Shown: piece after piece, positions 55,901 through 57,844 of the stretch | How positions within the stretch are numbered: position 1 is the first letter of the stretch | How the letters are laid out: each line of letters opens with the position of its first letter | Assembly: GCA_016283075.1 (NCBI GenBank) | Contig: JAEEMF010000026.1 | Span: forward strand, 5,270 to 69,269 | Source of the DNA: Bacilli bacterium | GTDB taxonomy: Bacteria; Bacillota_I; Bacilli_A; RF39; UBA660 | DNA: 64,000 nucleotides | Direction of reading: 5' to 3' | Made by a program: the position numbers and the translations under genes | The notes under the pieces: generated by a model | Told to the model about the DNA's origin: nothing | The model's database searches: none | The model's input: only the letters and a program-made list of their open reading frames with translations

Positions 55901-57844
55901 ATGACTGGCATTTATAATTTATATATTCCAGTATGTGGATTATTTATAGAATTGCTTTGCGGAGTAGTTTTTTTCTTAAAGAAAAGAATAACTAATAAAG
56001 AGACCGCAGTTTTTTCTAGAGTACTTATATATGGACTTATTGATAGCATATTAATGGTGGCAATTATTTATATTGGTTTATTTAATCCTGATAAAGTAAA
56101 ATTACTTGGTTTTTTAAATAAATTTGATTATGCTATGTATATATTATTTTCTAGTAATTTATTTTTATATGTTTATTATGTTACATCACAGAAAACTCTT
56201 GTAGAAAAAACAAAAATATATAGATTTTTCTTTTTCTTAACTACAGTAATAGACATAATTGTTATACTATCTTTATTATTCTTAGACATTAATATACATA
56301 ATAATAGAATAGTTATGTATAGTGATGGACCAGCTCTTACTAGTATGTTGATTGGATGTGGAATATATTTTGCAGCAATGATTATATGCCTAATCATAAA
56401 TTATAAGAGAGCAATTACTAAGAAGTTAGCGCCACTTTATAGTTTAATATTCTTATTTGCAATTGTATTTGTTTTAAATAGTGTTGATAAATCAATAGTA
56501 ATTAGTTCTGCTATAATAGCATATGTTAACTTAATAATGTTATTTTCAATAGAAAATCCTGATGTTAAAATGCTTGAACAAGTATCATTTGCTAAAGAAC
56601 AAGCTGAACTATCTAATCAAATAAAGACTAGTTTCTTATCTAGTATGAGTTGTGAGATTCGTACTCCTTTAAATGCAATAATGTGTTTATCTGAAGATAA
56701 CTTAAGATATAGAGAAGAACTTCCTAAAGAAGTAATTGAAAACTGCGAAGATATAAATCATGCAGGAGATACTTTAAATGAAATAGTAACAAATATTCTT
56801 GAAATGAATAGAATTGAATCTAATCAAATGGAAGTAGTTGAAGTAGATTATAATTTTGCTAGAGAAGTAAGATTACTATGTGAAAAACTTAAAAAACGTA
56901 TTGGAGAGAAAAACGTCTTCTTTAAATTCCATGTAGCAGATGATGTACCATATAATTTACATGGTGATAGAGATAAAGTAATTAGTATAGTTAGTAATGT
57001 AGTAAGTAATGCTATTAAGTATACTGATGAAGGAGAAATTACTTTAGAGATTAAATGTATTAATGATAATAATAAGAAAATTAGTAACTTATATATTTCT
57101 TGTCAAGATACAGGAAGAGGTATAAGACAAGATGAATTTTCTAAAATCTTTAATAAGTTTGAAAGATTAGGAGTAGAAAAAGATACAAGTATTCAAGGTA
57201 CAGGACTAGGACTATCTATAACAAAATCACTTGTTGAAATGTTAGGTGGTAATATAACAGTTAGTTCTCAGTATGGTAAAGGTTCTATCTTTATTATTAA
57301 TATTCCACAAAAGATAAGTGATGCTCCAGTAGAAAAGAAAGAAGTAGTATATAATAATGATACTAAAGTATCTTATGGTAATAAGAAAGTACTTTTAGTA
57401 GATGAAGATAAAGTTAATATAAAGATTTATCGTAAAGAACTTGAAGACTTTAATTTAACAATAGATGAATGTAATTGTTCAAGTGAATGTTTTGAAAAAA
57501 TTATTACTGGAAGAGAATATAGTTTAATACTAATGTCACTTTCACTAGAAGAATTAAATGGATATAAAACACTTGAAAGATTAAAAGAAAACCCAACATT
57601 TGAAATACCAGTTATAGCATTAACAAATGATCCAGATGCTGATATAGAAAAGATAAAAAGTAGTGGATTTTATGACTGTGTTATAAAATCATTTACTAAA
57701 GAAGAAATGAAGGAAAAACTAGATAAACTATTTAGAAAAACTAATTTTGGAGATAACTTTGTAATGGAAGCATTTTCTGATATGTCTAAACCAGTTAAAG
57801 ATATCGTTATTCCAAATAGTGTAGATGCTAGTAATAATGATTAG
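55901..57844 (+). CDS. Hybrid sensor kinase/response regulator (multi-TM sensor, HisKA, HATPase_c, C-terminal receiver) with Cys in place of the phospho-acceptor His
   Basis: ~7 N-terminal TM helices. H-box-like '[17 protein letters not shown]' (canonical SHELRTPLN) with codon TGT at 56651-56653. G-boxes 'DTGRGI' and 'GTGLGLSI'. Receiver '[11 protein letters not shown]'. RBS AGGTGA precedes ATG 55901 (the listed start 55892 is GTG). Confidence 0.75.

Follow-up and report, generated by a model that had tools for sequence, protein, structure and literature searches.

Which function can remain in a hybrid histidine kinase whose phospho-acceptor histidine has become a cysteine? This question is raised by a gene at positions 55901-57844 of a 64,000-nt stretch of contig JAEEMF010000026.1 from a Bacilli bacterium (the whole stretch is termed the window in the following). 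An earlier note had drawn attention to this cysteine and had offered three options, namely a non-phosphorylatable pseudo-kinase scaffold, the use of an alternative residue, and redox regulation via the Cys. Our analysis revealed a kinase without either canonical phospho-acceptor which is kept by selection and retains its ATP-binding domain. It is probably a functional pseudo-histidine kinase fused to a pseudo-receiver, which would signal by interaction and not by phosphotransfer. The window kinase protein is designated Q. Its residue numbers count from the mechanical open reading frame (ORF) beginning with GTG at 55892, and the homologues begin at ATG 55901. The gene encodes the Pfam domains HisKA, HATPase_c and Response_reg C-terminal to a membrane region. 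HisKA corresponds to the dimerization and histidine phosphotransfer (DHp) domain and HATPase_c to the catalytic and ATP-binding (CA) domain. The features of the gene are as follows.

55901-57844, + strand: degenerate hybrid histidine kinase gene, 647 aa from the likely start ATG 55901, stop at 57844
55901-56548, + strand: membrane sensor domain of 'type A', seven predicted transmembrane (TM) helices and one short beta-hairpin; 65-70% identity with those of His-type homologues
56549-56563, + strand: family-invariant IENPD motif where membrane part and cytoplasmic part meet, holds the right-hand recombination junction
56624-56821, + strand: HisKA/DHp domain, residues 245-310, contains the 22-residue H-box segment; ExxT motif (E255, T258) kept
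56651-56653, + strand: Cys254 codon TGT at the phospho-acceptor His position; TGC in scaffold L001, GCG (Ala) in contig L002
56684-56686, + strand: Cys265 codon TGT (H+11), replaces a Gly invariant in 144 His-type homologues; Cys in 3/3 degenerate members
56963-57313, + strand: HATPase_c (CA) domain, residues 358-474; N, G1, F and G2 box residues kept
57389-57721, + strand: receiver-like domain, residues 500-610, with D505E, D549S, M551S, P553E, A579N, Y596C and P600S
57536-57538, + strand: Ser549 codon TCA at the receiver phospho-Asp position; TCA in L001, TCT in L002; three changes from GAT

All three cytoplasmic domains were recognized by their profiles: PF00512 scored 32.5 bits at a cut-off of 26.9, PF02518 matched with E = 1.7e-25 over profile positions 1-110 of 111, and PF00072 matched the receiver-like domain with E = 7.9e-15. 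The Pfam domain scan of the kinase gave no match to a histidine phosphotransfer (HPt) or PAS domain. In an AlphaFold2 model based on a 71-sequence alignment and used for domain boundaries only, every domain was folded (mean pLDDT 79), comprising seven TM helices, two DHp helices (residues 222-268 and 276-306), the CA domain and a (beta-alpha)5 receiver.

Two further full-length proteins share the degenerate state of Q. P0001 is encoded on the 91-kb ENA metagenome scaffold L001, which stems from the same species and is colinear with positions 46976-64000 of the window. P0110 is encoded on contig L002, where the flanking genes are the same and the cytoplasmic part of the kinase gene shows 72% DNA identity. 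The nucleotides 56642-56662 of the window read AGT ATG AGT TGT GAG ATT CGT, which corresponds to S M S C E I R. As the earlier note had stated, the TGT codon at 56651-56653 is two positions away from CAT/CAC and lies in an otherwise perfectly conserved H-box; the 15-residue stretch around Cys254 agrees with the family consensus. In a MAFFT alignment of 146 close homologues the column of Cys254 is occupied by His in all 144 His-type sequences. P0110 carries Ala (GCG) in this column. The note had also argued against a trivial error, and indeed the independent assembly of the same species (L001) reads TGC, again Cys. Because of the two-nucleotide distance from a His codon (CAY) and the synonymous TGT/TGC variant in the two assemblies a sequencing or base-call error is ruled out. 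A literature search for the replacement of His by Cys in a histidine kinase gave no match.

A second H-box further upstream, or a wrong alignment of this segment, would have been a simple explanation. Residue-by-residue phmmer comparison with the solved kinases 7z8n, 7p8e and ShkA (6qrj) paired Cys254 with the phospho-His without any register shift, and HK853 entries such as 2c2a matched the kinase, too. Moreover, no invariant His was found anywhere in Q, P0001 and P0110. Thus, both a misalignment and an alternative H-box are ruled out. The nearest candidates lie in DHp helix 2, where Q and P0001 possess His290 (56759-56761) and P0110 possesses His293, that is at different positions. Canonical members mostly contain Asn or Gln at these two positions, and His293 is also found in five canonical members of the alignment. 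A helix-2 His as alternative acceptor is therefore a weak lead, which we judge to be coincidental. The earlier note had further allowed that orthologues might show His at the position of Cys254. This is true for the distant homologues (≤57% identity), whereas the true orthologues at the same locus carry Cys or Ala.

The loss is not confined to the H-box. In the receiver-like domain the phospho-Asp is replaced by Ser within the 10-residue segment that reads 'LILMDIMMPN' in the family, a substitution which is absent from the earlier note. Ser549 shares its column with the Asp of every canonical homologue that reaches this position (two end before it), and phmmer comparisons pair it with the receiver Asp in 7p8e and 6qrj. 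In the set of 146 close homologues Ser occupies the Asp position in exactly those proteins that lack the His, namely Q, P0001 and P0110 (codon TCT in the latter). The remaining receiver sites D504, T578 and K599 are kept, while D505 is changed to Glu in Q and P0001 and to Ser in P0110. Further changes concern M551, M552 and P553, A579 (to Asn), the switch aromatic residue Y596 (to Cys, Cys and Ser in Q, P0001 and P0110, respectively) and P600 (to Ser). The domain is thus a pseudo-receiver, recognized by PF00072 with both the phospho-Asp and the second Asp of the acidic pocket substituted. Whatever residue might act at the H-box, the relay is interrupted further downstream by the Ser that has replaced the receiver Asp.

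How widespread is this state? A collection of 5.8 billion proteins was searched twice, 1.84 billion representatives were searched exhaustively with HMMER, JGI metagenomes were scanned twice, and GTDB loci were inspected. Of the GTDB loci at least 510 were confirmed as belonging to the family, and the best 80 of them were inspected; the representative of the window's species was not among the 80. All searches together found the degenerate state in no proteins other than Q, P0001 and P0110 and the fragment P0167, which was the only addition made by the searches for further members in the protein, representative and JGI collections. P0167 is a 238-aa fragment from contig L088 of the NCBI metagenome-assembled genome (MAG) GCA_017542435.1. 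It carries Ser549, and L088 matches positions 57127-59949 of the window with 98.2% identity. In the JGI metagenomes a DNA pattern for a 14-residue clade segment gave 0 matches, and the protein-based scan found no clade member, only an unrelated 30% match. All 80 of the best GTDB loci, out of at least 510, encode both His and Asp. The hosts of the family are uncultured gut and rumen Bacilli MAGs ('Tenericutes', CAG-type). Neighbour-joining analysis of the cytoplasmic part grouped Q, P0001 and P0110 as a monophyletic clade in 200 of 200 bootstraps, and the most parsimonious history has both sites lost once, in their ancestor.

Other members of the family have lost the His on their own: P0163 and P0164 carry Tyr and P0182 and P0246 carry Gln, all with the Asp kept (L089, L090). 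Each of these cases is a single-nucleotide change on a short contig and may be an error.

Is the gene then a decaying relic? The long branches of the clade would fit such a view, as would the loss of 40-46% of invariant positions in the DHp and receiver domains and the rarity of the clade, of which 5.8 billion proteins contained three sequences and the JGI metagenomes not a single one. Against this stands an ORF that is intact in three full-length assemblies, and in its 3' part also in a fourth, partial contig. Over 429 cytoplasmic codons the window and L001 differ by 36.5 synonymous and 13.5 non-synonymous differences, which corresponds to a ratio of non-synonymous to synonymous substitution rates (dN/dS) of 0.082. 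For thirteen neighbouring genes pooled the same comparison yielded a dN/dS of 0.12. Consequently, the kinase gene is now under purifying selection and is not decaying; it equals or beats its housekeeping neighbours in constraint. Decay or an artefact of sequencing or assembly is largely refuted, and we regard it as highly improbable.

In order to see which parts of the protein are retained, we defined family-invariant positions as those at least 95% invariant in the canonical members. All three degenerate proteins keep 44 of 53 such positions in the CA domain, 31 of 51 in the DHp domain and 19 of 35 in the receiver; about 40-46% of the family-invariant residues are lost in the latter two domains, whose surfaces are remodelled. 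The nucleotide-binding boxes are intact in 3/3 proteins (N369, N373 and K376; DxGxG 406-410; F420 and F423; GxGxG 436-440), and the catalytic Glu beside the acceptor position is kept. The H-box segment 248-269, which includes E255 and T258, is identical at 19 of 22 positions between Q and P0110, compared to 62.5% overall (binomial P = 0.014).

Such an ATP site together with the catalytic Glu next to the acceptor position, both kept under selection, could mean that the CA domain phosphorylates Cys254 or another residue or, in a heterodimer, acts in trans on the His of a canonical paralogue. It is well established that the subunits of kinase dimers can phosphorylate each other in trans, and several family paralogues are common in single genomes (tandem copies in L013; L038/L042; L075/L080). 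Nevertheless, we consider an alternative acceptor unlikely. The Ala of P0110 excludes phospho-Cys as a conserved mechanism, no His is invariant in the three proteins, with His290 and His293 at different positions, and the protein's own receiver cannot take the phosphate. Furthermore, no canonical paralogue was found within the 64-kb window. The use of an alternative residue, as proposed by the earlier note, was thus not supported.

The third option of the note, a thiol-based redox sensor, has to be weighed together with the gene downstream of the kinase.

57853-58401, + strand: rubrerythrin gene, 8 nt after the kinase stop, preceded by AGGAGG

Such a sensor would use Cys254, Cys265 or both, exposed on DHp helix 1, and would respond by disulfide formation or oxidation, linked to rubrerythrin and peroxide defence. 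Cys265 replaces the invariant Gly in all three degenerate members and lies 11 residues, or about three helical turns, past Cys254, which would place both on the same face of the helix as judged from helical geometry. In EnvZ rewiring work H+11 was reportedly a partner-specificity position. The rubrerythrin gene starts 8-9 nt past the kinase stop in 4/4 degenerate loci and in none of the canonical loci examined. These arguments lose much of their force on closer inspection. Cys254 is Ala in P0110 and hence not required. Cys265 results from a single-nucleotide change (GGT to TGT) in the common ancestor, and with about 63% of the residues shared its retention is not significant, so that its presence in 3/3 members is uninformative at such divergence. 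The adjacency of rubrerythrin is shared synteny of orthologous loci and not independent evidence. Cys265 and rubrerythrin would be compatible with a thiol switch, but as inherited features of orthologues they carry little weight. Redox regulation via the Cys was therefore weakened to this residual lead, and on balance it is unlikely.

The remaining option, a pseudo-kinase scaffold, was strengthened by the loss of the receiver Asp, the monophyletic clade and the purifying selection. As judged from its sequence, Q departs from a functional HisKA kinase at the phospho-acceptor His, with DHp and CA domains that conform to one, and is a pseudo-histidine kinase in the sense of Collins and Childers, with kinase function lost and the gene retained (PMC12632262). 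In the proposed scheme the protein would descend from a large family of canonical hybrid kinases that are linked to acyltransferases and occur in uncultured gut Bacilli; one lineage of this family lost both relay sites (His254 to Cys, Asp549 to Ser). Neither autophosphorylation at the H-box nor a phosphate relay via the protein's own receiver would then take place. The 7-TM sensor could still drive conformational changes of the DHp/CA core, and the output would be a protein-protein interaction instead of phosphotransfer. The protein may form a complex or a heterodimer with another protein of its cell, either a canonical kinase or a receiver. Alternatively, it may dephosphorylate a partner receiver in a nucleotide-dependent reaction that does not need the His. 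Its own degenerate receiver would then have a part in regulation or docking. A phosphatase is conceivable because the His of HisKA is not essential for phosphatase activity (PMC12632262) and because both the ExxT motif and the nucleotide site are intact. A redox or phospho-Cys role is disfavoured by the Ala of P0110. Cys254 itself is probably incidental and was tolerated once the His had become dispensable, since the orthologue P0110 has Ala and the corresponding position of the Streptomyces protein PsmA varies as well.

Pseudo-histidine kinases are an already recognized class which includes DivL, PsmA, RcsD and RocA. The His is missing from about 0.9% of HisKA domains, and the Asp from about 2% of receivers (PMC12632262). 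DivL and PsmA work through binding (PMC4211667, PMC12963549). DivL from Caulobacter crescentus resembles the window kinase in possessing a HisKA-type DHp-CA core without phospho-His that is kept under selection; it binds phospho-DivK and modulates the canonical hybrid kinase CckA (PMC4211667, PMC9430884). In contrast to the alphaproteobacterial DivL, with its PAS sensors, its Tyr and no fused receiver, the window kinase has a 7-TM sensor, a fused pseudo-receiver and Cys or Ala, and occurs in gut Bacilli MAGs. It does not belong to the DivL family, as shown by Cys/Ala in place of Tyr, the missing PAS match and the gut Bacilli hosts. The proteins P0163 and P0164 mentioned above share the His to Tyr exchange of DivL, but are separate lineages that keep the Asp.

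PsmA is likewise a hybrid kinase without the H-box His and has a phosphorelay-independent function; its orthologues vary at the H-box position (E, D, Q, V, Y), as the degenerate clade does with C and A (PMC12963549). The two differ in almost everything else. PsmA lacks the ATP-binding residues and the E/DxxT/N motif, retains a dispensable receiver Asp and is a cytoplasmic protein with a disordered linker, whereas the window kinase resides in the membrane with seven TM helices, has intact ATP-binding boxes and an intact ExxT motif, and no longer possesses the receiver Asp. The pseudo-receiver finds its counterparts in REC1 of ShkA and PsR of CikA, which are kinase-fused, PF00072-recognizable (beta-alpha)5 domains without phospho-Asp that have regulatory or docking functions (PMC12632262, PMC6969517). 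Their kinase cores possess the His and are competent, unlike the core of the window kinase. Since this core is dead too, the window pseudo-receiver cannot gate autophosphorylation. RcsD and RetS are membrane-bound kinase-like proteins which join a phosphorelay by interacting with a hybrid kinase (RcsC and GacS, respectively) and do not use autophosphorylation of their own. In signalling without own autophosphorylation from the membrane they resemble the mode proposed here. RcsD has a functional HPt domain, which is missing in the window kinase, and RetS retains a dispensable His and Asp, both of which are substituted here.

The clade has long branches, with mean distances to canonical members of 0.68-0.77 compared to 0.415 among canonical members. 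The dN/dS of the deep comparison between Q and L002 was 0.39 at dS 0.73, in contrast to 0.155 at dS 1.13 for the canonical pair L004 and L005, with values for the degenerate and the canonical pair of 0.49 and 0.12 (DHp), 0.48 and 0.17 (receiver) and 0.23 and 0.13 (CA). Several points weigh against the interpretation as a functional pseudo-kinase. The deep dN/dS comparison depends on a single canonical pair and on dS values that are partly saturated in a genome of 27% GC. The clade comprises just three full-length proteins plus one fragment, and a single species accounts for two of these, which makes the conservation statistics thin. Neither a canonical paralogue nor an HPt protein or cognate regulator was found in the 64-kb window, where the sole other two-component element detected is an unrelated pair at 35369-37289. 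A phosphatase or binding output is what we infer from the sequence, and the retained ATP site would fit an unconventional kinase activity as well.

That pair consists of two overlapping genes, a 239-aa ORF at 35369-36088 with a receiver profile and a 403-aa ORF at 36078-37289 with DHp and CA profiles.

Is the dead transmitter still connected to an input? A hint came from the DNA upstream of the cytoplasmic part of the gene.

54892-55842, + strand: acyltransferase gene (PF01553) of 'type A', 316 aa, HX4D motif NHSNSHD, no TM segment
54896-56555, strand not applicable: swapped cassette, from just past the ATG of the acyltransferase gene through the 7-TM sensor to IENPD; end approximate

Between 54896 and approximately 56555 the window exhibited no DNA similarity to the corresponding segment of L001 (8794-10640), whereas both flanks are 95-97% identical. 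Accordingly, Q and P0001 are 96-99% identical from IENPD onward and only 27% identical in the membrane domain. Compared with the closest canonical loci, the acyltransferase of type A in the window shows 55-71% identity and the sensor of type A 57-70%. Both L001 and L002 encode instead a 388-aa acyltransferase and a 'type B' sensor; their type-B sensors are 84-85% identical to each other and 35-39% identical to those of another canonical subgroup. L002 shows the same cassette junctions independently. A metagenomic chimera as the origin of the swap is unlikely in view of the two switch points (ATG and IENPD), the colinear flanks and the same junctions in L002; a double chimeric join at just these points would be an implausible misassembly. 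Since even the best relatives of the type-A cassette (L015, P0099) are only 70-71% identical, its recent acquisition by gene conversion from a known sequence was not demonstrable.

An acyltransferase gene lies immediately upstream of the kinase gene in every canonical locus fetched by protein, and in the GTDB loci the type of acyltransferase (316 aa or 388 aa) tracks the sensor type. This suggests that acyltransferase and sensor form a functional pair. Because of the block swap and this tracking, enzyme and sensor behave as one module that was recombined onto the degenerate transmitter. The swap further suggests that it still pays to connect the dead transmitter to an input, and this natural exchange of sensors shows that the transmitter continues to be paired with new ones. 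Throughout the closer part of the family (L003-L086) a PF01553 acyltransferase gene was observed directly upstream (about 1 kb) of the kinase gene.

The arrangement recalls the agr specificity groups of staphylococci, which reportedly differ in a hypervariable segment comprising AgrB, AgrD and the AgrC sensor. In both cases the gene of a modifying enzyme and the adjacent N-terminal membrane sensor vary together while the cytoplasmic kinase is conserved. In contrast to agr, no peptide gene lies between enzyme and kinase here, and the enzyme is a soluble PlsC-type acyltransferase; nothing indicates that it makes a signal. The most far-reaching proposal would regard acyltransferase and 7-TM sensor as a strain-shuffled, agr-like cassette of signal synthase and receptor, coupled to a phosphorelay-dead transmitter with a nucleotide- and thiol-dependent switch (Cys265 with or without Cys254) that controls rubrerythrin or another partner. 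We consider this very unlikely. If true, it would represent a pathway derived from a two-component system without any phosphoryl transfer.

Pseudo-histidine kinases make up approximately 1% of HisKA proteins, and their mechanisms are mostly unknown. The present case adds to them a member with a particular combination of features, namely the loss of both relay sites, the retention of ATP-binding residues and ExxT, the 7-TM sensor and the exchangeable cassette of sensor and acyltransferase. Current understanding is not overturned by it. The clade offers a clean natural case with close canonical relatives for comparison and is convenient for asking what a kinase core does without phosphotransfer. 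In addition, it flags a conserved acyltransferase-kinase gene pair in the poorly known gut Bacilli.

Two further elements bracket the genes of acyltransferase, kinase and rubrerythrin.

54828-54855, + strand: promoter-like site TTGACA-16-(TG)TAGAAT, 11/12 matches with TG extension, in the flank shared with L001
58400-58423, strand not applicable: terminator-like hairpin 3' of the rubrerythrin gene, putative operon end, consensus match only

The promoter-like site is likewise a consensus match only, and such sites are not more frequent in the region than in shuffled sequences. The rubrerythrin gene (57853-58401) showed a dS of 0.47 between the window and L001, compared to 0.09-0.20 for the other neighbours; a second recombination tract beside the kinase gene may account for this value. 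Downstream of it an ORF for 268 aa of unknown function (58485-59291) corresponds to two genes (169 and 83 aa) in L088 (1358-2163), which could be due to a frameshift or stop in one of the contigs.

Elsewhere in the window we observed an arginine deiminase cluster with genes for arginine deiminase (47075-48343) and ornithine carbamoyltransferase (48337-49326). It is followed at 49323-51701 by a single 792-aa ORF which joins a carbamate kinase domain (AA_kinase) to a membrane carrier of the DcuC type; this fusion is also present in L001. Finally, the region 9228-26139 contains about 13 ORFs on the same strand, one of them encoding 1175 aa, which are nearly blank in Pfam save for a CYTH domain and a weak match to an S24 peptidase.

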